A stretch of DNA of 64,000 nt from Eubacterium sp. (GTDB taxonomy: Bacteria > Bacillota > Clostridia > Peptostreptococcales > Anaerovoracaceae): the NCBI GenBank assembly GCA_050946615.1, contig JBMNVD010000003.1, positions 4,177-68,176 on the forward strand, written 5' to 3'. How positions within the stretch are numbered: position 1 is the first letter of the stretch; every line of letters begins with the position of its first letter. Under the pieces are notes generated by a model that was given only the letters and a program-made list of their open reading frames with translations, ran no database searches and had not been told where the DNA came from. Below are positions 27,606 to 64,000 of this stretch, piece after piece. A program made the position numbers and the translations under genes.

Positions 27606-29777
27606 CTATTCTTCCGTCTTGTCTTCGGATTCTTCCTTAGGAGCTTCGGCAGGCTCTTCAGCCTTTGGCGCTTCCTCTGCAGGAGCCTCAGGAGCCGGTG
27701 ATTCCGGAGCCGATGCTTCCGGTGCTGCTGCTTCAGCAGGAGCTTCGACAGGAGCTTCGACAGTTTCCTCAGCTTTAGGCTCTTCCGCCGGTGCTGCTTC
27801 CGCTTCTTTTTCCGCTTCCTTCTGAGCCTTCATCGGTCTTGCTTCGTCTTCTCCGAGCTCGTCGATCGCGGCCTTGATGCTCAGACTGATTCTTCTTCTC
27901 TCCGTATCGATGTCGAGGATCTTAGTCTTTACGATCTCGCCTACTGAAAGTTCATCTGCGATGTTGGCGACTCTCTTATGAGCAACTTCCGAGATGTGTA
28001 CGAGTCCGTCAAGACCCGGTTCGATTTCAACGAAAGCACCATATTCCTTGAGCTGAACTACTTTGCCTGTGACGATCTGTCCGACAGCGTACTTCTCGTT
28101 GATAACGCTCCAAGGTTCCGGAGTCGTCTGCTTCAGTCCGAGAGAAATCTTTCCTTTCTCTTGGTTCATGGAGAGAACTTTTACGTTGATTTTCTGTCCG
28201 ATAGAGAGAACTTCCTGAGGATGTTTGAGTTTGCCCCAAGAAATCTCTGAGATATGGAGCAATCCATCGAGACCGCCGATATCTACGAATGCTCCGTAGT
28301 CGGTGAATCTCATAACGGTTCCTTCCACGATATCTCCGACGTGGAGATTCTCCCAGATCGCTTCGACCTGTTTCTGCTTCTCTTCGCGCAGGACCGCTTT
28401 ATGAGAGAAGACCGCTCTGTTTCTCTTAGGATCGAGTCTCGTGACCTTTACATCAAATGTCTGTCCGATGAATTCATCAGCGTTCTCGACATATCTGTCG
28501 GAAAGCTGAGACATAGGGATGAAACCCGTGAGTTCTTTATACGAAGCGATGACGCCGCCGTTCACAGCTCTCTCTACCTTTACGGTTATTGCAGTCTTGT
28601 TCTCATGAGCTTCGTTGATTTCTGCCCAGTATTTGCTGATCTCGAACTTCTTCTTTGAAAGAAGGATGTTCCCGTCGCTGTCATCTGTTCTGACAACCTT
28701 AGCTTGGACTTCGTCACCCGGTTTGAATGCATCCGTGAGCTTTTCTCCTTCCTCAAGAGTTACTTCCTCAAGCGGAAGAACGCCGTCTTTCTTGCATCCA
28801 AGATTGACGACTACGTGCTTATCGGTCACCTCAAGCACAGTCCCGTCTACAATATCTCCTACTTTAGGGAGTTTGAGAGACGCGTCGATTTCATCCATGA
28901 AATCAGCCATAGTTGTTTTTTCGTTGTTCGTATCGCTCATCCTGGCAATAACCTCCTTAATTACGCTTTCGGGTGTCGAGGCACCCGCCGCAATCCCTAT
29001 TTTATTATACTTTTTCAAGACTTTCAATGGAAAATTGTCAATATTTTCACCAAAAAAGGAGTTGCGGCAATATTTTTGTGCGATTTCGAAAAGTTTTGCC
29101 GAATTTGAGCTGTTTTCTCCACCAATGACGACCATAGCATCGACAGTTTTCGCCAGTTCGGCACATCCTTCCTGTCTCAGTTTAGTGGCTTCACAAATAG
29201 TATTGTGTATATCGGCTTTGATACCTCTTTTTTCGATGACGCCGCATATCTCGTCCAGCAGTTCTTTGCGTATCGTCGTCTGGCAGACAAGCAGATAATC
29301 ACCCGAATCGGGGATTTCTGCCGCTTCTTCCGGACTGTTGATGATCAAAGCCTTGTTTTCGCACCATCCGTTTGTCGCTATCACTTCCGCGTGGCTGCGA
29401 TCGCCGACGATGATTATGTCTTTTCCGGCTTTATACGCATCTCTGACTATCTCGTGTATCTTTGACACGAAGGGACATGTGGCATCTATTACCGTGACAG
29501 AACGCCCTTCCAGAGAATCATAGAAAGATTTGGGTTCTCCATGCGAGCGTATGATAAGCGTATCTCCGTCGTTGAGTTCAGACGGATTCTCTATTATCTC
29601 AACGCCTTTAGCCGCAAGGTCGTCCGTCACCGTCCTGTTGTGAATAAGCGGTCCGCATGTGCAAAGACGGCCCGAAGAACCACCCTTTTCTTTCTTCTCG
29701 ACCTCTGCAAGTGTCTTATCGAGAGCCCTCTTGACCCCGAAACAGAATCCTGAATTCTTTGCTCGTATTACTTCCAT
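27606..29777 (-). CDS. ispH: Bifunctional 4-hydroxy-3-methylbut-2-enyl diphosphate reductase (IspH) / ribosomal protein S1-like protein
   Basis: The N-terminal ~285 aa are IspH-like (GFCFGVKRAL, three conserved Cys regions). Four S1 repeats follow (GDIVDGTV, GQTFDVKV, GDIVEGTVMRFTDYGAFVDI, GQIVTGKVVQLKEYGAFVEI), then an acidic Pro/Ala/Glu tail. This fusion is known in Clostridia. Confidence 0.9.
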   Translation of the reverse strand: MEVIRAKNSGFCFGVKRALDKTLAEVEKKEKGGSSGRLCTCGPLIHNRTVTDDLAAKGVEIIENPSELNDGDTLIIRSHGEPKSFYDSLEGRSVTVIDATCPFVSKIHEIVRDAYKAGKDIIIVGDRSHAEVIATNGWCENKALIINSPEEAAEIPDSGDYLLVCQTTIRKELLDEICGVIEKRGIKADIHNTICEATKLRQEGCAELAKTVDAMVVIGGENSSNSAKLFEIAQKYCRNSFFGENIDNFPLKVLKKYNKIGIAAGASTPESVIKEVIARMSDTNNEKTTMADFMDEIDASLKLPKVGDIVDGTVLEVTDKHVVVNLGCKKDGVLPLEEVTLEEGEKLTDAFKPGDEVQAKVVRTDDSDGNILLSKKKFEISKYWAEINEAHENKTAITVKVERAVNGGVIASYKELTGFIPMSQLSDRYVENADEFIGQTFDVKVTRLDPKRNRAVFSHKAVLREEKQKQVEAIWENLHVGDIVEGTVMRFTDYGAFVDIGGLDGLLHISEISWGKLKHPQEVLSIGQKINVKVLSMNQEKGKISLGLKQTTPEPWSVINEKYAVGQIVTGKVVQLKEYGAFVEIEPGLDGLVHISEVAHKRVANIADELSVGEIVKTKILDIDTERRRISLSIKAAIDELGEDEARPMKAQKEAEKEAEAAPAEEPKAEETVEAPVEAPAEAAAPEASAPESPAPEAPAEEAPKAEEPAEAPKEESEDKTEE

Positions 29778-39636: not shown

Positions 39637-39780
39637 GTCCGCGCTAATTTGTTCTGAGGCCCGGCACCGCCCGCGCTCATATTAACTTAGGCCAGTTACA
39701 GTCCGCGCTCCAATTTTCTGAGGCCCGGCACCGCCAGCGCTCATATTAACTTAGGCCGGTTACATTCCGCGCTCCTCGAG
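39637..39780. repeat. 64-bp tandem repeat (about 2.2 copies) overlapping the 3' end of the acyl-CoA ligase gene
   Basis: The unit GTCCGCGCT..TTCTGAGGCCCGGCACCGCC(C/A)GCGCTCATATTAACTTAGGCC(A/G)GTTACA starts at 39637 and 39701. A partial third copy starts at 39765 and includes the stop codon at 39760-39762. Confidence 0.85.
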
Positions 39781-41550
39781 TTCCTTTTCTATCTCGACTC
39801 GTTCCTGATTGCGCTTCGTTTTCTGCGTCGTAGTCTTCACGGTCGGCCGATCTGACAGATAAAAGTGCCTTATCGCCTTGAATCTCGGGAGCGTTGCGTT
39901 GATGCGCTCTAAATCGCGCGCGAAAATCTTTTCGAGGTCCTCGACGGTGAGATTGTTCTGCGCGAGATACGCGTCGGAATAGACGACTTTCACCCAGAGC
40001 GAGATATCGCCGCACCAGATGCGCGAGAAAACCATGCTCTCCTGCACGTACGGCAGGAAGTTGACCAAAGTCTCGATTTCCTCAGGGAACACTTTTTTGC
40101 CGCTCTTCAATACGATAACGTTCTTTTTGCGGCCCGTTATCCAGAGATAGTTGTCCTTATCAAAGTATCCGAGGTCGCCCGTGTGGAACCAGCCGTCCTC
40201 TGAAATGACTTCGCGCGTGGCTTCTTCGTCACCGCTGTATCCCATCATCACGTTGTCCCCGCGCACGCAGAGTTCGCCGATGCCGTTTTCATCGGGATCC
40301 TCTATCCGCGTTTCTATATTCGGGAGCGCCATGCCGCACGAGCCCGGCTTTACGTGTCCGACGTACTCGCTTGCGACCGTAGGAGCGCACTCGGACAGAC
40401 CGTAGCCTTGGACAGTCAGAATGCCGAACTCGTTGAAGCCGCGCGAAACTTCGGGGTTGATAGGTGCCGCGCCGTTGACGATGAATCTCAGATGGCCGCC
40501 GAGCTGGTCGATAATGGAGCTGAAGACCCTGCGCCTCACGTTGGTGCCGATGCCGAACCTGTCTGCGGCGTCGCAGAATTTGCGGGCCATCTGGACCTGA
40601 GCCAGTTTGCCCTGTTTTTCCGCGGTCTTCATGATGCGCTTGTATATCGTCTCGACGAGAAGAGGCACCGTCAGCAGGACAGTGACTTTATATTCGCGAA
40701 GATTCTCGGTTATGTGCTTGAGACCGTCCGTGAACGCGATTGACATCCCCTGAGAAATGAACGTCAAAACGCCGCCCATGCCATAGCAGTGATGGAGCGG
40801 TAAAATCATAAGTGAAACGTCCTGCGGCGTGAATTCTTCGACGAGATTCATGCCGTAATTGACTGCCATGATGTTCTTCTGGGACAGCATGACGGCCTTT
40901 GATTTGGATGTGGTCCCGGACGTAAACAGCAGGCATGCGAGAGCTTCTCTGTCGATAGGCCTTTCGGCGTATTCCTTATATCCGTCTAAGCAGAGTTCTT
41001 CCCCTCTGATTATCAGATCGACCATGCTGAGTCCGCCGTCCGGAACAAAATCGAGACCTATCACATATTCAAGGTCCGTTTTCCCGTCGTCAAAAACCTC
41101 TTTGACGATTTCATATCTCCTCTTGTCGCAGAAAATCGCCCTTGCTCCGCTGCGCTGCAGCATGCTCTCGAGTTCTTCTTTCTGGATGAGCCTGTCGAGA
41201 GGAACTATCACGCCGAGTCCGCACGCGACGGCAAAATACGAGAGGCACCATTTATAACTGTTCTCGCCTATCAAAGCGATATTTTCACCGCCGAGTCCCA
41301 TGTCCAAAAGCGCGCTGCCGACGCAGTTCACCTCATAGAAAAGTTTTTTATACGTAGTGTAGATGTACTGCGGCGCACCGCTCTCATCCTTTGTTTTGGT
41401 GATGAAGGCGACTCTGAAACCGTATTTTTCCGACGAAGTCCTGAGCATATCTCTCAGATCTGTAAACTCGCGGAAGCTGCGGGCGAGTTCGCGATTCCTG
41501 AGCGGGTATCCTCTGTAAAAATTCTTGATATTTTTTCTTTTTCTATCCAT
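39760..41550 (-). CDS. AMP-dependent synthetase/ligase (long-chain fatty-acid--CoA ligase type)
   Basis: The AMP-binding motif LFTSGTTSKSKAVMLSQKN is present, with later GYGLSE and TGDLGYFDKDNYLWITGRKKN motifs. The start is trimmed to the ATG at 41548-41550 (MDRKRKN) because the longer ORF runs through the tRNA gene. Confidence 0.85.
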   Translation of the reverse strand: MDRKRKNIKNFYRGYPLRNRELARSFREFTDLRDMLRTSSEKYGFRVAFITKTKDESGAPQYIYTTYKKLFYEVNCVGSALLDMGLGGENIALIGENSYKWCLSYFAVACGLGVIVPLDRLIQKEELESMLQRSGARAIFCDKRRYEIVKEVFDDGKTDLEYVIGLDFVPDGGLSMVDLIIRGEELCLDGYKEYAERPIDREALACLLFTSGTTSKSKAVMLSQKNIMAVNYGMNLVEEFTPQDVSLMILPLHHCYGMGGVLTFISQGMSIAFTDGLKHITENLREYKVTVLLTVPLLVETIYKRIMKTAEKQGKLAQVQMARKFCDAADRFGIGTNVRRRVFSSIIDQLGGHLRFIVNGAAPINPEVSRGFNEFGILTVQGYGLSECAPTVASEYVGHVKPGSCGMALPNIETRIEDPDENGIGELCVRGDNVMMGYSGDEEATREVISEDGWFHTGDLGYFDKDNYLWITGRKKNVIVLKSGKKVFPEEIETLVNFLPYVQESMVFSRIWCGDISLWVKVVYSDAYLAQNNLTVEDLEKIFARDLERINATLPRFKAIRHFYLSDRPTVKTTTQKTKRNQERVEIEKELEERGM

Positions 41551-41591
41551 TATCAGTGCAATCTCTATCCCTTTATTTATCAAAAATATTT

Positions 41592-41667
41592 TGGTGCGCC
41601 AGGGGGGATTCGAACCCCCGGCCTCCACATTCGGAGTGTGTCACTCTATCCCCTGAGCTACTGGCGC
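41592..41667 (-). tRNA. tRNA-Arg (anticodon CCG)
   Basis: My hand-folded 76-nt cloverleaf has acceptor GCGCCAG/CTGGCGC, D-arm GCTC..GAGT, anticodon loop CTCCGAA, T-arm GGGGG-TTCGAAT-CCCCC and an encoded CCA. Confidence 0.9.
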
Positions 41668-46510: not shown

Positions 46511-49500
46511 TCAGACTCTTTCTACGGTGATACCCGTGTCGTGGCCGTTGAGGTCGAATCTCTCTTCGCACTTCCCGTGTTCCACGGCATCGGCGAGGGT
46601 CTCTTTTTTGATATATTCTTCGTGTTCGGCGACCGCTGCCTTTACGGCTTCGTCCTCGTCGATCGTTATGACTATCCTGTCCATCATCTCGTAGTCGGCC
46701 TGTTTTCTCAACTGCTGGACTTTAGAGATGAGTTCGCGCGCGAGTCCTTCGTTGATGAGTTCCGGAGTGAGCGTCGTATCTAAGATAGCAAATACGTTGT
46801 TCTCCATCGCCACGGAGAATCCCTCTTTCGCGTTTATCCTGACGTCGACGAATTCCTTCGGTATATCGGTTTCCTCGCCGCCTAAGTTCATGACGACAGA
46901 ACCGTTCTTTTCGAGTTCGGAGTTCAGTTCGGCAGCATCCGCCTTTGCGAGAGCAGCCGAAAAATCTTTTATCTTCTTTCCGAGGACCGGACCTGCTGCC
47001 TTGAAATCAGGCTTCAGAGAGAAGTTCATGAACTTTCCCAGGTCATTTTCAAAGTCGACGTTCTTGACGTTGAGTTCGTCTTTTATCAGGTCGGAAAGGT
47101 CGCCGATGACGGGTTCGAATTTGCCGTCCACGACTATCTCGGTTAGAGGCTGTCTGACCTTGATGCGCTCTTTTTCGCGGAGCCCGCGGCCCAGCGTGGA
47201 GATGGTGCGCACGAGGTCCATGCGCTCTTCCTCTTTGTCGTCGATGAGATCGGTATTCGCCTCAGGGAAATATGCCGTGTGAACGGTATACTCGCCCGTG
47301 AGTTTGGTATATATCTCGTCTGAGATGAACGGCGCGAAAGGCGCTATCAACTTTGACACTCCGACCAAGATCTCATACGTCGTGGCATAGACGCTCTTTT
47401 TGTCGTCGCTCATGCCGGAAGCGTAGAATCTCCTGCGGGCGCGCCTGATGTACCAGTTTGAAAGGTCCTCGACCACAAAATCGGTTATGGCTTTGACGGT
47501 CTTCATGTGATCGTATGCGTCCATGTCGCTTCTGACCTCGACGATGAGCCTGTTGTATTTGCTCAGGATCCAGCGGTCCAGTTCAGGACGCGTTTCGTAC
47601 GGTACAGTAACATTCGCGGCATCGATGCCGTCCTCGTTCGAATACAGAACGAAGAAGTTATATACGTTCCTTAGCGTTCCGAAGAATTTGCTGACGACGT
47701 CTTTCAGACCGTCCTCGTCGAATTTCTTCGGCGTCCACGCAGGCGAAACGGAGAGCAGATACCATCTCGTGGCGTCGGCTCCGTACTGATCGAACAGATA
47801 GAACGGAGATACCGTATTGCCGCGCGATTTGCTCATCTTCTTGCCTTCTTTGTCGAGGATGAGGTCGTTCACGAGCACGTTCTTATATGGTGCGCGGCCG
47901 GCGATGAACGTTGATATCGCCATAAGCGAATAGAACCATCCCCTCGTCTGGTCGATGCCTTCGCAGATGAAGTCAGCCGGGAAGAGTTCGTCAAAGTCGT
48001 CCTTGTGCTCGAACGGATAGTGCCACTGTGCGAAAGGCATTGCGCCCGAATCGAACCAGCAGTCCATGACATCCGGGACTCTGGTCATGAGTTTGCCGCA
48101 CTTCGGGCATCTCAGATGCACTCTGTCGACGTACGGTCTGTGAAGTTCTATGCTCTCGTCGATAGGTTCGACGGATTTTTCCACAAGTTCCGCGCGGCTG
48201 CCGACGCACTCGAGATGTCCGCATTCACAGCGCCAGATAGGGATAGGCGTGCCCCAGTATCTTGAACGCGAGATAGCCCAGTCTTTGACGTCTGCGAGCC
48301 AGTTCCCGAATCTCTTTTCGCCGACATACGGCGGGTACCAGTTGACCGTGTTGTTGTTCGCGACGAGCTGATCCTTGAAATCGCTCATCTTTATGTACCA
48401 GCTCTGATGAGCGTAATACACCAGCGGAGTGCCGCAGCGCCAGCAGTGAGGATAGTTGTGGACCATTCTCTGCTTGGAAAGGATCTTCGTGTCGAGGTAT
48501 TTGATGATATCGACGTCCAGTCCCTCTTCAAAGATGAATCTGCCTTTCCAAGGAGTCGCCGTATAGCGTCCCTGGCTGTCGACAGGCTGGATCATCGGCA
48601 GGTGATATTTTACGCCGCACTGATAGTCGTCCTCGCCGAAAGCCGGAGCGGTGTGAACGATGCCGGTGCCGTCCTCGACGGAGACATAGTCCATGCAGGT
48701 GACAAAATACGCCTTTTCGCCTTCTTTCGGCGGGCAGAAAGGCATCACAGGCTCATACTCCATGTATTCCATGTCAGAGCCCTTCATCTCTTCAAAGATC
48801 TCGTAATTTCCTTCTCCGAGGACCGCGTCAGCGCGTTCCTTTGCTACATAGAATATGTTTCCCTTCTCATCGCCTTCGGTCATGCGGACTTTTACGTATT
48901 CGATGTCAGGTCCGACCGTCAAAACGGTATTTGCCGCCAGCGTCCACGCAGTCGTCGTCCAAGCGAGGAAATACTCGTTCTCGGTTCCCTTCTTCTTGAA
49001 TTTGACCGTGAGGGAGATGACTTTTATCTCTTTATATCCCTGAGCAACTTCGTGAGAGGCGAGACCGGTCCCGCAGCGAGGGCAGTAAGGAAGTATCTTA
49101 TGCCCTTCATAGATCTTTCCGGCGCCAAAGAACTTCTTCAGGATCCACCATCCCGACTCGATATAGTCGTTGTCGAGCGTGATATACGGGTGGTCGAGAT
49201 CAGCCAGATATCCCATCCTCTCTGACATCTCGCGCCATTTATCTGTATATTTGAAGACGGATTCGCGGCATTTCTTGTTGAATTCCTCGATGCCGTACTT
49301 TTCGATATCCTGTTTCCCGTTCATGTGGAGCTGTTTTTCGACTTCTATCTCCACAGGGAGTCCGTGCGTGTCCCAGCCGGCCTTGCGCTTTACCTGGTAG
49401 CCTTTCATCGTCCAGTATCTGTTGACCGAATCCTTAAGGGTCCTCGCCATCACGTGGTGGATGCCCGGCATTCCGTTGGCCGTAGGAGGACCTTCATAGA

Positions 49501-49624
49501 AAACGAACTGCGGCTTGCCCTCGCGGGCTTTGACGCATTTCTCGAGCAGGTCATCCTCTTTCCATTTCTTCACCTGAGCGTTCTGTACTTCCGCCACAGG
49601 CGCGTCCGATAGTTTTTCGAACAT
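46511..49624 (-). CDS. ileS: Isoleucine--tRNA ligase (long, type-2-like form)
   Basis: It has the class I motifs PPTANGMPGIHH and KMSKSRGN, the editing domain and a length of about 1037 aa. The start is trimmed to the ATG at 49622-49624 (MFEKLSD); the upstream extension enters the T-box leader. Confidence 0.95.
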   Translation of the reverse strand: MFEKLSDAPVAEVQNAQVKKWKEDDLLEKCVKAREGKPQFVFYEGPPTANGMPGIHHVMARTLKDSVNRYWTMKGYQVKRKAGWDTHGLPVEIEVEKQLHMNGKQDIEKYGIEEFNKKCRESVFKYTDKWREMSERMGYLADLDHPYITLDNDYIESGWWILKKFFGAGKIYEGHKILPYCPRCGTGLASHEVAQGYKEIKVISLTVKFKKKGTENEYFLAWTTTAWTLAANTVLTVGPDIEYVKVRMTEGDEKGNIFYVAKERADAVLGEGNYEIFEEMKGSDMEYMEYEPVMPFCPPKEGEKAYFVTCMDYVSVEDGTGIVHTAPAFGEDDYQCGVKYHLPMIQPVDSQGRYTATPWKGRFIFEEGLDVDIIKYLDTKILSKQRMVHNYPHCWRCGTPLVYYAHQSWYIKMSDFKDQLVANNNTVNWYPPYVGEKRFGNWLADVKDWAISRSRYWGTPIPIWRCECGHLECVGSRAELVEKSVEPIDESIELHRPYVDRVHLRCPKCGKLMTRVPDVMDCWFDSGAMPFAQWHYPFEHKDDFDELFPADFICEGIDQTRGWFYSLMAISTFIAGRAPYKNVLVNDLILDKEGKKMSKSRGNTVSPFYLFDQYGADATRWYLLSVSPAWTPKKFDEDGLKDVVSKFFGTLRNVYNFFVLYSNEDGIDAANVTVPYETRPELDRWILSKYNRLIVEVRSDMDAYDHMKTVKAITDFVVEDLSNWYIRRARRRFYASGMSDDKKSVYATTYEILVGVSKLIAPFAPFISDEIYTKLTGEYTVHTAYFPEANTDLIDDKEEERMDLVRTISTLGRGLREKERIKVRQPLTEIVVDGKFEPVIGDLSDLIKDELNVKNVDFENDLGKFMNFSLKPDFKAAGPVLGKKIKDFSAALAKADAAELNSELEKNGSVVMNLGGEETDIPKEFVDVRINAKEGFSVAMENNVFAILDTTLTPELINEGLARELISKVQQLRKQADYEMMDRIVITIDEDEAVKAAVAEHEEYIKKETLADAVEHGKCEERFDLNGHDTGITVERV

Positions 49625-49727
49625 ACCATTGTCCTTTCTGCCAAAACGCAAACTCTGCGCATGCGCTGCTTGATCCGCCGCTTCTGCCCATGCCATGTTA
49701 CGGCAAAGATCGCGGCGCCCGGCTCAG

Positions 49728-55644: not shown

Positions 55645-55681
55645 CAAAAAACTTCCGTGGAGTCTCCCGGAAGTTTTTTTG
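55645..55681. terminator. Bidirectional terminator between the convergent transglutaminase-like and malic enzyme genes
   Basis: The sequence is AAAAAA-CTTCCG...CGGAAG-TTTTTTT. Confidence 0.7.
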
Positions 55682-55718
55682 TTCTCAGTTATTATACGGC
55701 AATACGGTCCGTCGTCGT

Positions 55719-56876
<1,158 letters not shown>

Positions 56877-58138: not shown

Positions 58139-58492
58139 TTTATTAAGCCTCCGATTAAATTAAGCAGATGTAATTATAGTGCATAAAATCTACATTTCTA
58201 ATTATATTTATTCATACAGGAAAGTCAACAGGAAAATTTTATTTTTTGTTAAAAATAGTATTGACAAGACGTTTGGATGGTATTAGTGTATGTATATTCG
58301 TTAAAGTGCATAAATATTTACGGTTAATTATTCATCGAGGTGTTACGGTGAAACATTCGGCACACCGGCACGGATAGGCAGCATTAACAAAAAGCGATGT
58401 GGATGTTTTAAGAAGAAAAGATATCTCAATCAAAGAAAATGTTTGATGCAGAGTGAATGTGCCGTGAAATGTGAAAGGGGTATTTGAACAAA

Positions 58493-59317
58493 ATGAAAGG
58501 GGCAAGTTTTAAAAAGTCAGCAAAAGCTGCCGCTATTATTATCAGTGCGGCAATGGTCATGACACTGTTCGCGTGCGGTTCAAGTCAAACCGACAGCAGC
58601 ACAAGCACAAGTGATGAGAAAGAAACGTACACAGTTGCCACCGAGGCTACATATCCGCCTTTTGAGTCTACCGAGGAAGACGGTACACTCGTAGGCGTCG
58701 ACATCGATCTGATGGAGGCGATCGCCGAGGATCAGGGATTCGAGATCGAATGGGTCAACATGGCTTTTGATTCGCTATTCCCTGCTCTCAATTCCGGGAA
58801 CGCCGACATAGTCGCCGCTGCAGTCTCATCCAATCCGGAGCGAGCCGAAAATGCCGATTTCTCCGACGGATATTACGAGTCCGGTTCGTGCATCATGGTC
58901 ACCGAAGATTCAGATTATAACTCTATCGACGACTTGGACAGCAATGCTAAGATCGCATGTCAGATCGGTACGACTATACAAGAGAATGTCCAGGCGCTCG
59001 TCGACGAAGGCAAAGGCGGCGAAGTCGTTGCGCTCGACACTTTCAGCACTTCCGTCATGCAGCTTAAAAACGGAGACGTTCAGGCGGTCGCTTCAGAGAG
59101 CATCGTCATAGATGAATACATGGCGGAAAATCCCGGATTCAAAAAAATAGGCCAGATACCTAACGTTTCGGGAAGCGACGACACTCTGCGCTTCGCAGTT
59201 GCAAAGGGAAACACAGAACTGCTCGATAAGATAAACCAAGGTCTCGCGGACATCGTCGAAAGCGGCAAATACCAGGAAATAATGGACAAATACAGCCTTA
59301 CGGGTATGTACGACTGA
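58493..59317 (+). CDS. Amino-acid ABC transporter substrate-binding lipoprotein (family 3 SBP), no cognate permease/ATPase adjacent
   Basis: It has the lipobox LFACGS and polar amino-acid SBP motifs (ATEATYPPFE, GVDIDLMEAIA, ALNSGNADIVAAAVS). The start is taken at the ATG at 58493, 12 nt after GAAAGGGG. Confidence 0.8.
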   Translation: MKGASFKKSAKAAAIIISAAMVMTLFACGSSQTDSSTSTSDEKETYTVATEATYPPFESTEEDGTLVGVDIDLMEAIAEDQGFEIEWVNMAFDSLFPALNSGNADIVAAAVSSNPERAENADFSDGYYESGSCIMVTEDSDYNSIDDLDSNAKIACQIGTTIQENVQALVDEGKGGEVVALDTFSTSVMQLKNGDVQAVASESIVIDEYMAENPGFKKIGQIPNVSGSDDTLRFAVAKGNTELLDKINQGLADIVESGKYQEIMDKYSLTGMYD

Positions 59318-59395
59318 AATCGAATATAAACAAAAATGCCTCACGGCCTTGCACGGCTGATGAGGCTGAAGTCGAACGGGACAAAATGACTACGG

Positions 59396-60238
59396 TCACT
59401 CCTCTGTTTTCCCGCTCGACAGCATCTCGCGGCGGTACCATGTGGTGCCGCCGATTTTCATTATTTCATCGGCATAACGCTTTATCAGGTAATCGTCATC
59501 CATGCCTTTTGCCAGCGTCCAAAGAAAATAGTCAAGCCTGACTTTCGCCAGATTCGTGCGATGGTCGCTGCGGTCCGGGTGCTCTGCGAAAGCCTCAAAT
59601 CCCATCTTGTAATCGCGTTTTGATATGACGCTCAGCATGACCGGAAGGTCTTCCGCCTCGCGGTACATATCCTCAAGCGGGCCGGTCGTGTCTATCTTCT
59701 GGCGTTCGACTTTCGCGGAATAAAGTGCATCGGACAGAACGCCCGCGTCTCCGTCTTCATAGGCATAGAACGCCTTCGCCAAAGCGAGCCGGAACCGGCC
59801 TTTTTCGTTCAGCGAGAATTTCCCGAAAACTTCCAGTACTTTTTTCCCATCGTCAAATCTGCCGGCTGAATGAAGAGCCATCGCGACGTTGAAACAGTGC
59901 TCGTCCCAGTCGGAGCCGGAAATGCCGGACGCGAGGAACGTCATATACTTTTTCATAAATACTTCCGGGTCGCATTTGTCGTTTAAAAGCGCTATCATGC
60001 GCTTTTTGGGGCCGATGGTAGTTTGATAGAGCGCGAGGACCATTACCATCAGCACCGGGACCGAGAGAGTCCCGTGCGGCATCTCCGTAAAATACGCTGC
60101 GGCGCAGAAAACAGCAGAGGCTATTGTCAAGCCGGAAAGCGCTTTTACGGTTTTGGCGGTCCTGTGCGATCTTGCCTCGTCGACGTCGGAAAACTCAAAG
60201 CCAGAGGCGTCCAGAATTGATTTGAATGTGAGGTTCAT
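59396..60238 (-). CDS. Hypothetical membrane protein: 2 TM segments plus a helical-repeat (TPR-like) domain
   Basis: The 280-aa protein has hydrophobic segments LSGLTIASAVFCAAAYF and LSVPVLMVMVLALYQTTI, followed by an all-helical-looking domain. It lies 70 nt downstream of the Hsp70-like gene on the same strand. Confidence 0.55.
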   Translation of the reverse strand: MNLTFKSILDASGFEFSDVDEARSHRTAKTVKALSGLTIASAVFCAAAYFTEMPHGTLSVPVLMVMVLALYQTTIGPKKRMIALLNDKCDPEVFMKKYMTFLASGISGSDWDEHCFNVAMALHSAGRFDDGKKVLEVFGKFSLNEKGRFRLALAKAFYAYEDGDAGVLSDALYSAKVERQKIDTTGPLEDMYREAEDLPVMLSVISKRDYKMGFEAFAEHPDRSDHRTNLAKVRLDYFLWTLAKGMDDDYLIKRYADEIMKIGGTTWYRREMLSSGKTEE

Positions 60239-60308
60239 GTCTGTATTTTTCAGTATTCTCGGATTGCGGTTATTTTTGGACGAATCGCGGTCATGCCGCG
60301 GTCTTACA

Positions 60309-62219
60309 TCAGCCCAGAGGTATCTCGACTACTTCTGCCATCTTTGTCAGGCACATCTCGATCTGGTCGGAGATGCCTGAGACCATTCTTTCGGTTATTT
60401 CCCGGTTCTTTTCGTCGTCGATGGACTCGTTGAATTTATCGATGATCTCGCCGGTCATCAGATCCATGCGGGATTTAAACGACGACTTCGGCACCAGCTT
60501 GCGCACCGGATTCGGTATGTCCGCGTTTAGCAGCGCGCTCTCCATTTTTTCTTTGCCGAGGACCAGAACAAGCATCGAAACGAGCACGCCAGCCATGATA
60601 CCGGTAGGTCCGCTCGATATCAGCGCCGCTCCGCCTCCTCCGCACAGAAGTCCTACGATTATCGTGATTATCGAATCGATAAGCCACGTTATCTCTTCCA
60701 CGGCAAACATGTCTTTTGCATCTATCTTTATCTCGATGTCAGACGCGGAAAGCAGCGACGAAAGCGAGAGCGCCGAATACGGCACGTTATGCTTCACACA
60801 GATCGGGACGGTGAATTCCTCAAGGGCAGTCGAGACATCGCGCAGCCATCCGGTAATAGGGCCTGAAAGGACATCGCGGGCGTCGTCCGTGTGCAGGTAC
60901 TCTTCCACTCTTTTTTCGAGTTCCGTATCGGTGTCTGAAAGCCTCCTGATTTTCCCGCTCTTCCATTCCTCAAAGACAGGAAGCGCGACTTTTTCCAAGA
61001 TCGGGTGCACCAAAGCCGAGATAGCGGCCTTATACAGGTCACGGATGCGCCCCGCGATTATCTCGTCGACTTTGCCGGAATTCAAGAATTCATCTATCTC
61101 CTGATGAAATTCGCGGAGTTCCTCGTCTATCCTGCCGCACCACGATAAGCCTCGTGAGACAGAGTATTCCGGCTCCACGCCGGTGATGACGATAGATTCC
61201 GGGAATACTTCGAGGCACCAGTCGCGGATAGCTTTCAGTCCCGAAACACCGCCCGTGAGGAAGATGAGTTCGGGTATCTGTCCGCTGATGTTATCGCGCA
61301 CGTCCTGCAGGCTCTGAACAAAGACCTGTTTGAACGACTTTCCGCCGAGTTTTGGGGTCTTCTTGTTCATGAGTTTGTCCGCGGTCTGCTCGTCCATTTT
61401 GATGGAGAGCCTCAGCGGCTCGCGATAGCGGATCATGACAGTCTCTTTGCACGGATGTTTGCTGAAATATTCCTCGGCCGAAAAATATTTTTCTTTGAGA
61501 TGGCGGGCCGCGAACTCACAGTAGGTGCGCCAAGGCTCGCTTTGTTTGAAAGCCGATCTGATGCGGCCGGAAAAAAGCGAATTTTCGACGGCCTCGTCCA
61601 GCAGTATCTCGTCCATGATGCCGCCGCCCAGAGATACCTCCCCGGCGGTCTGCATCTCGACTTCGCGTCCGCTCATGATATATGCGAAATCCGTCGTTGA
61701 CGAACCGATATCGACGACTAGCACAGGCTTTGACAAAATGTCGTATCCGACCTGCAGATACCTCGACTGGCACGCGCTGATAAGCGCCGCGCGCGATTCG
61801 GAGACTACTTTGAGCGGAGGATAACCGAGACGTTCGAAAATCGAGCGGTACCTTTCCCTGCTATTTTTGTCCCATCCCGCCGGACAGCCTATATAAAAGC
61901 AGCAGTCGTCGCCCTTTACGAGATAACCTTTCTTGTAAATCTCCGCCAAAACAGTGCCCGCAAAGTTTCTAACGTCGTCGTCGCTGTGCGGATCTGTCAG
62001 GAACCTGCTCTTGAACCTGAGTTTTCGCTCTATGGCGTCCGCTTCGTAGCAGGCCCTCTCACCGATTATTCTCCGGCCGTCTTTGAGCAGAGCGTAAGCG
62101 GTTATGAAACTGCCTGCCCCGCCTATTTCGAGGATCTCCGGAGCGGACTGATCGTTTTTATGAAGGACGGAAACCGCGCTTTCAGCGTCGCCCAGATCGA
62201 ATCCGTAAAACTTTTCCAT
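60309..62219 (-). CDS. Hsp70/actin-fold ATPase-like protein with C-terminal Gly-rich transmembrane hairpin
   Basis: The phosphate-1-like motif is YGFDLGDAESAVS, the phosphate-2-like motif VVDIGSSTTDFAYI...LGGGIMDE and the adenosine-like motif LIFLTGGVSGLKAI. No Hsp70 substrate-binding domain is recognisable. The C-terminus contains IITIIVGLLCGGGGAALISSGPTGIMAGVLVSMLVLVL. Confidence 0.7.
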   Translation of the reverse strand: MEKFYGFDLGDAESAVSVLHKNDQSAPEILEIGGAGSFITAYALLKDGRRIIGERACYEADAIERKLRFKSRFLTDPHSDDDVRNFAGTVLAEIYKKGYLVKGDDCCFYIGCPAGWDKNSRERYRSIFERLGYPPLKVVSESRAALISACQSRYLQVGYDILSKPVLVVDIGSSTTDFAYIMSGREVEMQTAGEVSLGGGIMDEILLDEAVENSLFSGRIRSAFKQSEPWRTYCEFAARHLKEKYFSAEEYFSKHPCKETVMIRYREPLRLSIKMDEQTADKLMNKKTPKLGGKSFKQVFVQSLQDVRDNISGQIPELIFLTGGVSGLKAIRDWCLEVFPESIVITGVEPEYSVSRGLSWCGRIDEELREFHQEIDEFLNSGKVDEIIAGRIRDLYKAAISALVHPILEKVALPVFEEWKSGKIRRLSDTDTELEKRVEEYLHTDDARDVLSGPITGWLRDVSTALEEFTVPICVKHNVPYSALSLSSLLSASDIEIKIDAKDMFAVEEITWLIDSIITIIVGLLCGGGGAALISSGPTGIMAGVLVSMLVLVLGKEKMESALLNADIPNPVRKLVPKSSFKSRMDLMTGEIIDKFNESIDDEKNREITERMVSGISDQIEMCLTKMAEVVEIPLG

Positions 62220-63079
62220 TACATACCACCTAACGCCACGCCTTTTTTAAGGAGTTTGCCCTCCGACAAAATGGCAGGCCTGATAGTGCCGCTGTCATGG
62301 CTCGGCATAACGTCAAAAAATTCTCTGTTCTCTTCGGAATAATCTATCACGTCGATTCCGTTCTTGTGCAGAAAATACGGTATCTGCTCGAGTTTATCCA
62401 GCGCGAACTGTCCGTCTTTGCTGTACGCGGCCTCAAGGAGCCCGGCTATCATGTCGGTCTCTTCCACGGTCAAAAGGTTCCTTCCCTGCTCGGCCGTCTT
62501 TTTCTTCAACTCGGACGCTTCTTTGTCCATCATCATTTCCAAGTCCTGATCCATGGTCATTATCGTCGTATGCAGGGAATTATATACTTTGTTCGGATCG
62601 ACGATAAGTTCTGTCCTGAATTCCTTTTTCGCTCCGACTCGCGACTTTCCTCGCATGCGGCCGGATATGTACATCAAAACGAGCGCGGCCGCCACGAACA
62701 AAACCGACAGAGAAGTTATCTTTATCTCGCCGCCCGATGAGAGAAGTGACGCAAAAGCGCAAACCACGGCGATTATCATGAAAACAATGAATGTCCCGGA
62801 GGTCGACTTGGTGCTGTCTTTTGCTTTGGTCTCCCAAATTTTCGCGTCGGTGACGCAGCCGGTAAGAGACGAAAGCGCTCCGGCCGAGTGTATCATGCAT
62901 GACGCGGCCTCCCGGCCAAGTTCGCTTTGGCAGTTTTCGTTGTACCTGTAGAGTATCTTATCCAGTTCGTCGATCAAAACGTCTTCGGCGTGTTTCTGGT
63001 CGTGTGAAGCGCTGAGATCGTTTATGAACCTGTCCTTATCCTCTTCGAGGAGGTCGAGCATTTTCATTTGGTTCCTCAT
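62219..63079 (-). CDS. Hypothetical 2-TM protein, translationally coupled to both neighbours
   Basis: The 286-aa protein has central hydrophobic segments FIVFMIIAVVCAFASLL and LSVLFVAAALVLMYISG, flanked by helical or charged regions. Its start overlaps the lipid kinase stop (ATGA) and its stop overlaps the Hsp70-like start (TAATG). Confidence 0.6.
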   Translation of the reverse strand: MRNQMKMLDLLEEDKDRFINDLSASHDQKHAEDVLIDELDKILYRYNENCQSELGREAASCMIHSAGALSSLTGCVTDAKIWETKAKDSTKSTSGTFIVFMIIAVVCAFASLLSSGGEIKITSLSVLFVAAALVLMYISGRMRGKSRVGAKKEFRTELIVDPNKVYNSLHTTIMTMDQDLEMMMDKEASELKKKTAEQGRNLLTVEETDMIAGLLEAAYSKDGQFALDKLEQIPYFLHKNGIDVIDYSEENREFFDVMPSHDSGTIRPAILSEGKLLKKGVALGGM

Positions 63080-64000
63080 TTCCTGCCGGAACTGCCGGAG
63101 CGTCTTGCCGGTGTCATTATCGTTATGGCGTGCTTCTGCACCTCGAATTCCATATTTTTGAATGAGCCGCCGTACTCTCCGTCAAGTGTCCATGAAATTT
63201 CATCTTCGGACGATATGGAAACTTTTTTTACTCTGTGGAACGAGATGTACTTATTGTCAAATTTGCCGTTGACCAGAGCGTTCGCCGTTGCGCTCAGTTC
63301 ATAGAAGTTTGCGGGCTTGTTTATCAACAGCATCTCGAATGTGCCGTCGTCTAATGAAATCGTTTTGTTTCCGGGGACGGCAAAGCCTCCGACCGAACTT
63401 GAACTGTATATCGCGCCGAAAACGTAGTCGCCCTCGGTCTCGAATGAATCCGCGGAGAATTTTATCCTCGCGGAGTAGTTGATGTTCTCCTGCAGGGTGC
63501 TCATCGCCTGAAGCAGATAGGCGGCGTGGCCGATGGCGTTCTTAAATGTCTGATTCGTGGAATACGTGACTTTGGTGAAGGCTCCGAACGCCCCGACGTA
63601 GTTGTAATAGCGGTTGTTCAGTCTGCCTATGTCGTATTTGAACGGAACTCCTGTGGCTATGGTCCTGCACGCGCCGGAAACCGTGACGGGAATGCCCATA
63701 TTCTTTGCGAAATCGTTGGTGCTTCCGGCGGGTATGTATCCGAGTATCGGGCGGTCTTCCTCGCGGAACTTCATCAGCCCGTTTATGACGTGGTTGAGTG
63801 TCCCGTCGCCTCCGCCGCAGACGATATAGTCGAATTCTCCGCCGACGCGGGCCATGACATCTTCGGAACCGAGGCCGGCCGTAGGTTCTACCGGGCGGAA
63901 CACCACATCAAAACCGTTAAGCGTAAAGTATTTTACTATGTTGTATACGGAGGATCCCAGTTTGCCTTTGCCTGCCGTACCGTTCAGAAGCAGAAGAAGT
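63076..64000 (-). CDS. Diacylglycerol kinase-family lipid kinase (YegS/BmrU/DagK type), 5' end outside the window
   Basis: The GGDGTLNHVING catalytic-domain motif is present. The reading frame stays open to the window edge, where my translation reads LLLLNGTAGKGKLGSSVYNIVKYFTLNGFDVVF, typical of the DAGK_cat N-terminus. Confidence 0.8.
   Translation of the reverse strand, partial: LLLLLNGTAGKGKLGSSVYNIVKYFTLNGFDVVFRPVEPTAGLGSEDVMARVGGEFDYIVCGGGDGTLNHVINGLMKFREEDRPILGYIPAGSTNDFAKNMGIPVTVSGACRTIATGVPFKYDIGRLNNRYYNYVGAFGAFTKVTYSTNQTFKNAIGHAAYLLQAMSTLQENINYSARIKFSADSFETEGDYVFGAIYSSSSVGGFAVPGNKTISLDDGTFEMLLINKPANFYELSATANALVNGKFDNKYISFHRVKKVSISSEDEISWTLDGEYGGSFKNMEFEVQKHAITIMTPARRSGSSGRK

Follow-up and report, generated by a model that had tools for sequence, protein, structure and literature searches.

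ATPases of the Hsp70 fold are among the best-studied molecular machines, and some of them work outside the DnaK/DnaJ/GrpE triad or at a membrane. HscC, whose cofactor DjlC is a J-protein anchored in the membrane, shows that an Hsp70 cofactor can be membrane-tethered; HscC keeps its substrate-binding domain (SBD), and DjlC possesses a J-domain. YegD is an atypical, SBD-less Hsp70 paralogue, soluble, about 450 amino acids long and not known to have a dedicated partner. In the presequence translocase-associated motor (PAM), which comprises mtHsp70, Tim44, Pam18/Pam16 and Mge1, the Hsp70 is held at the inner membrane face with membrane-anchored regulators, mtHsp70 itself being soluble and harboring an SBD. 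The present analysis concerns a locus of Eubacterium sp. located in a stretch of 64,000 nucleotides (nt) (assembly GCA_050946615.1, contig JBMNVD010000003.1, positions 4,177 to 68,176), hereafter the window. There, the gene of a 636-residue Hsp70-type ATPase, p636, directly follows that of a predicted two-transmembrane-helix (two-TM) protein, p286, and the pair is flanked by the genes of a lipid kinase and of a third predicted membrane protein, p280. The conserved unit is almost certainly a two-gene cassette, partner and ATPase, and not a four-gene operon.

Comparison with these systems delineates what is shared and what is not. As in DnaK and other Hsp70s, residues 1-360 of p636 form an Hsp70-type nucleotide-binding domain (NBD) in which the equivalent of E171 is kept, but a helical domain, an integral hairpin and a tail take the place of the linker, SBD and lid, and neither a J-domain nor a GrpE cofactor is detected with it. 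YegD and HscC resemble p636 as Hsp70-fold ATPases standing apart from the triad, whereas p636 is itself predicted to be membrane-embedded and p286 gives no J-domain match. The likeness to the PAM motor would be one of concept only, as homology to the pair extends to the NBD alone and p286 is not demonstrably J-like or GrpE-like. The order of elements in p636 (nucleotide-hydrolysing domain, helical bundle, hydrophobic hairpin, helical tail) recalls by analogy that of atlastin and of the bacterial dynamin-like proteins. Those proteins are GTPases of a fold unrelated to p636 and have no sequence or structural match to it; a fusion or fission activity of the pair would be pure speculation. With MreB (partner RodZ), FtsA and FcmB (partner FcmC), p636 has in common the acetate and sugar kinase/Hsp70/actin (ASKHA) fold, as seen with Foldseek; it differs by its Hsp70-type signatures, its own predicted TM hairpin and the upstream position of the partner gene. 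What FcmB does at the membrane is determined by FcmC, encoded together with it (PMC12645912).

Three described groups were considered as identities and rejected. FcmB/FcmC is a different family, FcmB being ParM-derived and without a TM segment (PMC12645912). The Hsp70-like components of CoCoNuT/McrBC systems keep the NBD/SBD unit (PMC11090510) and are unrelated, no McrB or McrC being encoded at the locus. The EACC1-protease-DnaK-like fusions, 50% identical to DnaK and joined to proteases (PMC12642450), are likewise unrelated to p636. A full-text literature search, incomplete in its coverage, found no description of this ATPase/partner family.

The linkage of the two genes was surveyed in 55 species-level genome loci, 80 metagenome loci (ATPase identity of 32-66%) and six deep-branch contexts. 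Wherever upstream sequence is available, the genome loci all show a co-directional partner homologue immediately 5' of the ATPase gene, and so do all 61 metagenome loci with room for it (at least 700 nt upstream; E 1e-33 to 1e-118). The gap between the two genes in these other loci ranges from -52 to +185 nt and is mostly of -4 to +40 nt, and the linkage persists at ATPase identities down to ~25%. In each of the six deep-branch contexts, a Pfam-less gene encoding 268-368 amino acids directly precedes the ATPase gene; five of the six products are clear partner homologues (hhalign 98.6% and 99.0%, hmmsearch E 1e-17 to 1e-41), each exhibiting the central hydrophobic hairpin and the C-terminal motif of p286. 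The partner gene comes first, and its junction with the ATPase gene is tight or overlapping, in rumen Clostridia, in Beduinella massiliensis, in a metagenome-assembled genome (MAG) labelled Gammaproteobacteria and in environmental lineages. Neighbour clustering over 116 loci places the partner family next to the ATPase in 96 of them and the next commonest family in five, and reveals no third conserved component beside the pair. One part of the preliminary description is borne out, in that an Hsp70/actin-fold ATPase and a two-TM adaptor do form the core of an uncharacterised membrane module. This is supported by the 61 linked loci and by the fact that neither family is present in Pfam, NCBIfam or PADLOC; as to conservation of the gene order, p286 and p636 are linked everywhere this can be checked, clearly so in five of the six deep branches, while the kinase and p280 are not.

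The family is large, old and widespread, and its architecture is uniform. More than 2,243 homologues of p636 were found, with hardly any variation in length; apart from the nearest two, at 99% and 89%, the listed ones are 59-67% identical to it (57-67% in the comparison with the partners). A search of 1.84 billion cluster representatives (clusters at 50% identity) with residues 361-636 only yielded 351 matches at E <=1e-3, of which 179 at E <=1e-10. Among the best 150 listed, at identities of at least 22%, the module lies at ~360-640 of proteins of 630-690 residues, or in shorter, probably fragmentary ones, and none is a fusion of the module with the partner. The architecture of p636 is therefore fixed, as its C-terminal module always occupies the same position. 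Among the members are the cultured Beduinella massiliensis (WP_102412241.1; Clostridia, Beduinellaceae), the Gammaproteobacteria-labelled MAG and many environmental sequences, as well as gut and rumen Clostridia and a lineage labelled Cyanobacteria; the few named homologues are from Lachnospiraceae, Eubacterium or Bacillota. Automated labels are in conflict (DnaK, actin-like ATPase, FtsA), WP_102412241.1 being annotated as a "rod shape-determining protein". The ATPase-family gene is single-copy in each genome of the 55 species.

The N-terminal moiety of p636 was assigned by several routes. Searched against PDB sequences, the family profile matches the NBDs of DnaK and Hsc70 over residues 1-359 (E 4e-7), and Hsp70 NBDs are the only proteins among the best 60 of the 87 matches. 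The AlphaFold (AF2) model (predicted local distance difference test score, pLDDT, of 79; predicted template-modelling score, pTM, of 0.70) retrieves the NBDs of DnaK, mortalin and BiP in Foldseek (best E 8e-12, i.e. ~1e-11; TM-score (target) of 0.6-0.69). A deep alignment of 50 family sequences, 23-56% identical, aligns with residues 2-379 of E. coli DnaK over 337 columns (hhalign 98.65%, E 4.8e-16), the phosphate-1, phosphate-2 and adenosine motifs being in register. The motif pairs, family versus DnaK, are GFDLG = GIDLG, ESRAA = NEPTAA (E141 = E171), DIGSSTTD = DLGGGTFD, LGGG.D = LGGEDFD, GGASRM = GGQTRM and EPE..IA.G = NPDEAVAIG. In the same 50 sequences, D8, G10, E141, G172, G198, T322 and G323 are invariant, and K70, S173, S174, T175, D177, D203, G324, R327 and M328 are at least 90% conserved. 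This invariance or near-invariance of the catalytic residues shows that ATP binding and hydrolysis are under selection. Judged from its sequence, p636 is clearly an ASKHA ATPase of the Hsp70 branch with intact catalytic motifs and without an SBD.

Existing family models do not capture p636. It reaches 15.5 bits with Pfam HSP70 (cut-off 20.6), 10-16 bits with the NCBIfam DnaK models (cut-offs 648-1002) and 17.2 bits with Pfam MreB_Mbl (cut-off 27; E 0.0024), and its NCBIfam matches to BeeR and PilM-like models are far under their cut-offs. The best NCBIfam match, though weak, is to YegD (PRK11678, E 3e-4). As a family, p636 has no entry in Pfam, NCBIfam or PADLOC.

All Hsp70 alignments of p636, whether from the PDB profile search, Foldseek or hhalign, stop at about residue 360, and past this point no interdomain linker, β-sandwich SBD or lid is found. 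The AF2 model exhibits instead long helices (353-500), a hairpin (507-554) and further helices (556-630). Searched with a deep profile of this C-terminal module (361-636), the PDB gives no match (best E 0.72) and Pfam none that recurs. Its landmarks at depth are W419, W458, a T-x-P-I-C loop, a GGxGxAL...GPxGxxxG turn and R573; G527, G528, G537 and G540 of the hairpin, as well as R573, are at least 90% conserved. The hydrophobic hairpin is found in 50 of 50 deep ATPase homologues, followed in 49 of them by a tail of 69-86 residues. The very end of the p636 tail, ...AEVVEIPLG, is invariant within the rumen clade only, a clade across which the ATPase has a mean column identity of 73%.

The partner, p286, belongs to no family in Pfam, NCBIfam or PADLOC and gives no significant sequence-profile match in the PDB. 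Its AF2 model (pLDDT 79) starts with a helical bundle (residues 7-76) that precedes the pair of predicted TM helices (Table 1); a 40-residue helix (162-202), short helices and a six-stranded β domain (242-285) follow. All 99 partner homologues examined have the central hydrophobic hairpin. The best-conserved stretch is formed by the last ~80 residues, where the motif reads LLEA...YFLH..GI.V.DY....F(D/E)..PS...T(I/V)RPAL...G.LLKKG.A, the end of which can also be written FD.MPS...TIRPAL...G.LLKKGLA. The 26 word-sharing homologues, at 27-38% identity beyond the near relatives, are all without a Pfam domain.

By its order of elements (a long helix, short helices and a small C-terminal β domain) p286 resembles GrpE, and inspection of the C-terminus by eye had suggested a GrpE-like exchange factor. 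This idea was rejected as not demonstrable. No GrpE was found by the PDB profile search of p286 or by a Pfam scan of 16 partner C-terminal halves, and a comparison with E. coli GrpE (sequence checked against 1DKG) gave 1.4% in hhalign. An alignment of 31 partner sequences against a profile of three verified GrpE proteins, with a reversed-sequence control, reached 6.5%, and the sole resemblance behind this probability is an 8-residue one, TIRPALV versus T(L/I)R(P/A)AMV. Foldseek of full-length p286 against the PDB gave no match at E <=0.1 and no GrpE in the best 50 listed. A J-domain was also looked for in Pfam, without any DnaJ match for p286 or p280 at E up to 1.

Table 1. Features of the cassette and of its flanking genes. 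Positions are those of the window, residues those of the encoded protein.
Feature	Position	Strand	Remarks
YegS/BmrU/DagK-family lipid kinase gene	63076 to >64000	(-)	Frame open to the window edge; ~5 residues missing by profile coordinates
p286, two-TM partner gene	62219..63079	(-)	286 residues; 282 residues likelier, start 63067
p286, two-TM hairpin, residues ~96-140	62660..62794	(-)	Kyte-Doolittle peaks 2.63 and 2.24; AF2 helices 95-114 and 123-144
p286, C-terminal part, residues 205-286, candidate ATPase-docking domain	62222..62467	(-)	Most conserved part; AF2 pLDDT 80-89
TAATG stop/start overlap, p286/p636	62217..62221	(-)	Read in the sequence
p636, Hsp70-type ATPase gene, core of the conserved cassette	60309..62219	(-)	636-residue open reading frame (ORF)
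p636, Hsp70-type NBD (ASKHA fold), residues 1-360	61140..62219	(-)	Profile, Foldseek, hhalign, motif conservation
p636, all-helical domain, residues 361-505	60705..61139	(-)	AF2 pLDDT ~80-89; W419, W458, T-x-P-I-C loop (C474)
p636, glycine-rich hydrophobic hairpin, residues 506-556, predicted membrane anchor	60552..60704	(-)	Kyte-Doolittle peaks 2.1 and 2.0
p636, basic juxtamembrane stretch and helical C-terminal tail, residues 557-636, predicted cytoplasmic	60312..60551	(-)	AF2 helices 556-630
p280, lineage-restricted orphan gene	59396..60238	(-)	280-residue ORF; two weak hydrophobic segments

The TAATG overlap, the short junctions found elsewhere and the conserved C-terminal motif of the partner suggest that the two products form a complex. 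The best explanation overall, which we hold at about even confidence, would be that they make up a heteromeric ATPase machine located on the inner membrane face. A mechanism can be proposed for it more tentatively, at somewhat less than even confidence. p286 and p636 would assemble into a stoichiometric membrane hetero-complex with nearly all the mass of both proteins on the cytoplasmic side, as both are anchored by hairpins. The conserved C-terminal domain of p286 would dock on the NBD and control the ATP/ADP cycle, a cofactor role analogous to that of a J-protein, an exchange factor or an adaptor of the RodZ/PilN type. Driven by nucleotide, the NBD would open and close, and the helical domain would relay this movement to the glycine-rich hairpin; the resulting work would be done on the membrane itself or on client proteins embedded in it, as part of a constitutive or stress-related housekeeping function. 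The classical chaperone cycle would not apply, because there is no peptide-binding domain. A bolder form of this proposal, which we find rather doubtful, is that the pair represents a new class of Hsp70-derived integral-membrane machine, controlled by a cofactor of its own, from a family not seen before, and performing mechanical work on the bilayer or on membrane proteins. Membrane remodelling or repair and the extraction or insertion of membrane proteins would be examples of its output, and it would be the bacterial counterpart, in concept, of membrane-tethered Hsp70 motors or atlastin-like remodellers.

Several observations weigh against the proposed machine. p286 is not demonstrably a GrpE, a J-domain protein or any other known Hsp70 cofactor. 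The catalytic lysine of p636 is ambiguous, since its K70 is offset by 3-4 residues from K70 of DnaK in the hhalign alignment. The hairpin of p636 is modelled with low confidence (pLDDT <50 at 528-546), and its topology is taken from hydropathy only. The partner has 27-38% identity at a depth where the ATPase keeps 57-67%, a pattern seen in conflict systems as well. Lastly, Foldseek scores for Mbl and MreB are nearly as high as for the Hsp70 NBDs (E 1.1e-11 to 2e-10, TM-score (target) of 0.63-0.69), and because they rival those of DnaK, a polymerising, actin-like mode of action keeps a share of the probability. To note, the asymmetry of rate between partner and ATPase is found at depth, yet the ratios of nonsynonymous to synonymous substitution (dN/dS) of the two genes are alike between close relatives (0.054 vs 0.048).

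The genomic surroundings of the pair are of the housekeeping type: it is chromosomal and single-copy. The wider window is core chromosome, with Lon, topoisomerase I, an IspH-S1 fusion, IleRS, PNPase and a tRNA-Arg, and the recurrent neighbours of the pair elsewhere are UvrA, TraX, acetyl-CoA transferase, pyruvate kinase, NAPRTase, FBP aldolase, a GH25 lysozyme and a UvrD-type helicase. Searched against the 5,027 models of PADLOC-DB v2, the four proteins of the locus give no match at E up to 1. No phage-encoded homologue was found, and a single plasmid homologue exists in the 72,556 entries of PLSDB. The dN/dS of ~0.05 is of a piece with this housekeeping character.

Two divergent contexts were recorded. 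The plasmid copy is that of Calothrix brevissima NIES-22 plasmid2 (AP018209.1, 10821-12743), 29% identical over residues 6-480. It sits between phage-integrase-family genes, and the 268-residue product of its upstream gene is a marginal partner homologue (hmmsearch E 5e-4) without the C-terminal motif; this locus (L059) looks like a divergent, possibly mobilised variant. On a contig of the Joint Genome Institute (JGI) metagenome 3300041966 (P0297), a Dynamin_N gene and the gene of an 853-residue HSP70-WD40 fusion are located 5' of the cassette on the same strand. The ATPase is there 726 residues long and bears the JGI label [quoted passage not shown], which hints at an NfeD-like fusion; this context may be a link to membrane remodelling or to conflict.

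The Mbl/MreB scores bring to mind a membrane-anchored actin-like filament, as with MreB, FtsA or FcmB, for which the partner would be an adaptor or regulator comparable to RodZ or FcmC and the function one in cell shape, division or membrane organisation. The closest of these scores (E 1.1e-11, TM-score (target) of 0.67-0.69) are nearly as strong as for DnaK, the weak MreB_Mbl match (E 0.0024) is slightly better than the HSP70 one, and some homologues are labelled "rod shape-determining protein", "FtsA" or "actin-like ATPase". FcmB/FcmC provides a precedent for an actin-fold protein and a membrane-localising partner in one operon (PMC12645912), although FcmB is ParM-derived and devoid of a TM segment, and the order of the two genes is the reverse. 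At 17 bits, however, the MreB_Mbl match is under the 27-bit gathering cut-off, the best 60 of the 87 PDB profile matches are Hsp70 NBDs only, and the alignment of the deep profile with DnaK runs over the full length, GGASRM/GGQTRM and EPE..IA.G/NPDEAVAIG included. These motifs are signatures of Hsp70 rather than of MreB. Furthermore, p636 carries its own predicted integral hairpin, and to our knowledge no filament former does. We consider a filament unlikely, and a conflict or abortive-infection module more improbable still. In such a module the ATPase would sense stress or a phage cue, and its glycine-zipper hairpin, together with that of the partner, would permeabilise the membrane. The conserved glycine-rich GGxGxAL...GPxGxxxG hairpin and the fast-evolving partner would suit it, as would the Calothrix plasmid copy between integrase genes, the dynamin-like and HSP70-WD40 genes just upstream on one metagenome contig, and an Xre-like/RES gene pair ~2 kb downstream of the cassette at one genome locus (L061). 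Yet the four proteins go unmatched in PADLOC, phage homologues are absent and plasmids contribute one match in 72,556. The pair is surrounded by core housekeeping genes that close species share in a manner compatible with vertical descent, and each of the 55 species has one copy. The 73% mean column identity of the ATPase in the rumen clade would also be unexpected for a fast-turning-over immune gene. The defence reading put forward in the preliminary description thus finds no backing in the database matches or in the gene neighbourhood.

Less probable again is the four-gene membrane-remodelling operon, in which lipid phosphorylation would be coupled to the ATPase. The first gene product is, on its profile scores, a lipid kinase of the YegS/BmrU/DagK family: it scores 138.3 bits with NCBIfam TIGR00147 (cut-off 118.65) and 82.9 bits with Pfam DAGK_cat (cut-off 23.6, E 1.8e-23), YegS_C being marginally under its threshold (26.6 vs 27). 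Kinases of the YegS/DagK type are common stand-alone genes in Bacillota. p280 has no family match in Pfam, NCBIfam or PADLOC, and its relatives among 5.8 billion proteins amount to itself and one protein at 69% identity (two clusters), so that it is confined to this narrow lineage. Both here and in the single close relative, Clostridiales bacterium UBA7285 (L039; 89% identical), the four genes share one direction with little space between them, the successive junctions being 8 or 44 nt, an overlap, and 70 or 119 nt. No terminator is detected between them, in a scan whose counts are at the shuffle level; with this spacing, local co-transcription is plausible. The kinase and p280 are nevertheless absent beside the pair in 54 of the 55 genome loci, the exception being UBA7285, in all 80 metagenome loci (no homologue of either within 6 kb) and in all six deep-branch contexts. 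Since they are absent elsewhere and p280 is an orphan, they are local neighbours only: their position beside the pair is a local juxtaposition, an accident of gene order and not a system. The four-gene composition advanced in the preliminary description is not supported.

Its reading of the local gene layout fares better. The four co-directional genes are confirmed as ORFs, and the comparison with UBA7285, used as the dN/dS reference, yields 0.030 for the kinase, 0.054 for p286, 0.048 for p636 and 0.145 for p280 (dS ~1.2-1.5); this purifying selection identifies all four as real genes and not chance ORFs. The assignment of the kinase to the YegS/DagK type, the TAATG overlap, the 70-nt spacing between p636 and p280 (119 nt in UBA7285) and the location of the upstream boundary outside the window, the kinase frame being open to the edge, are all as described. 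The ATGA sequence at 63076-63079, at the kinase/p286 junction, is present too, but the overlap it was taken for probably is not one. The ATG at 63067 is a likelier start for p286 than that at 63079, because a GAGGA Shine-Dalgarno sequence lies just 5' of it, homologues open with MKMLD, the 99%-identical protein is called at 282 residues and the layout in UBA7285 is alike. With this start, the kinase and p286 genes are separated by a gap of 8 nt, compared with 44 nt in UBA7285. Promoter and terminator predictions over 58300-64000 occur at the number expected from shuffled sequence and carry no information on co-transcription. The predicted membrane anchoring of the three non-kinase proteins is supported by hydropathy for p286 and p636, with two hydrophobic segments each (residues ~96-140 and ~508-556), and is less marked in p280, whose segments at ~33-76 are weak (Kyte-Doolittle peak of 1.6-1.7). 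The Hsp70-like ATPase is confirmed through its NBD, although it does not end in the hairpin, as ~80 predicted cytoplasmic residues follow. The statement that no protein could be placed in a named family stands for p286 and p280, whereas p636 clearly begins with an Hsp70-type NBD of 360 residues.

Other features of the window were recorded along the way. Inside the 3' end of p280, at 59430-59453 (+), lies a strong terminator-like hairpin of 10 pairs (8 G-C) followed by a T-run; it sits 113 nt after a convergent SBP_bac_3 gene and may be the terminator of that gene, embedded in coding sequence. The ORFs antisense to the cassette at 60373-61104 (+) and 62297-62740 (+), as well as 55657-56517 (+) (243, 147 and 286 residues, respectively) and others, are mirror ORFs of minus-strand genes and not genes. 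At 27606-29777 (-), a 723-residue protein fuses IspH/LytB, of isoprenoid synthesis, to four S1 RNA-binding repeats, a fusion already recognised in Clostridia. The isoleucyl-tRNA synthetase at 46511-49696 (-) carries a C-terminal DUF5915. A tRNA-Arg(CCG) at 41592-41667 (-) overlaps the 5' end of the 622-residue AMP-binding-enzyme ORF called at 39760-41628 (-), which places the true start of this ORF further downstream. No T-box or other Rfam element is found in the window besides this single tRNA.

The architecture described here, an Hsp70 NBD followed by a helical module without detectable relatives and a hairpin, and always accompanied by one partner gene, falls outside the families of Pfam, NCBIfam and PADLOC. 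A practical lesson of the locus is that the lipid kinase link, a matter of local gene order, gave the appearance of a novel multi-enzyme system. The perfect linkage of partner and ATPase offers instead a clean, testable two-protein system, carried by the cultured Beduinella massiliensis. If p286 does regulate the nucleotide cycle of p636, it would be a new kind of Hsp70 cofactor, and if their complex acts on membranes, it would constitute a new bacterial membrane-homeostasis machine.

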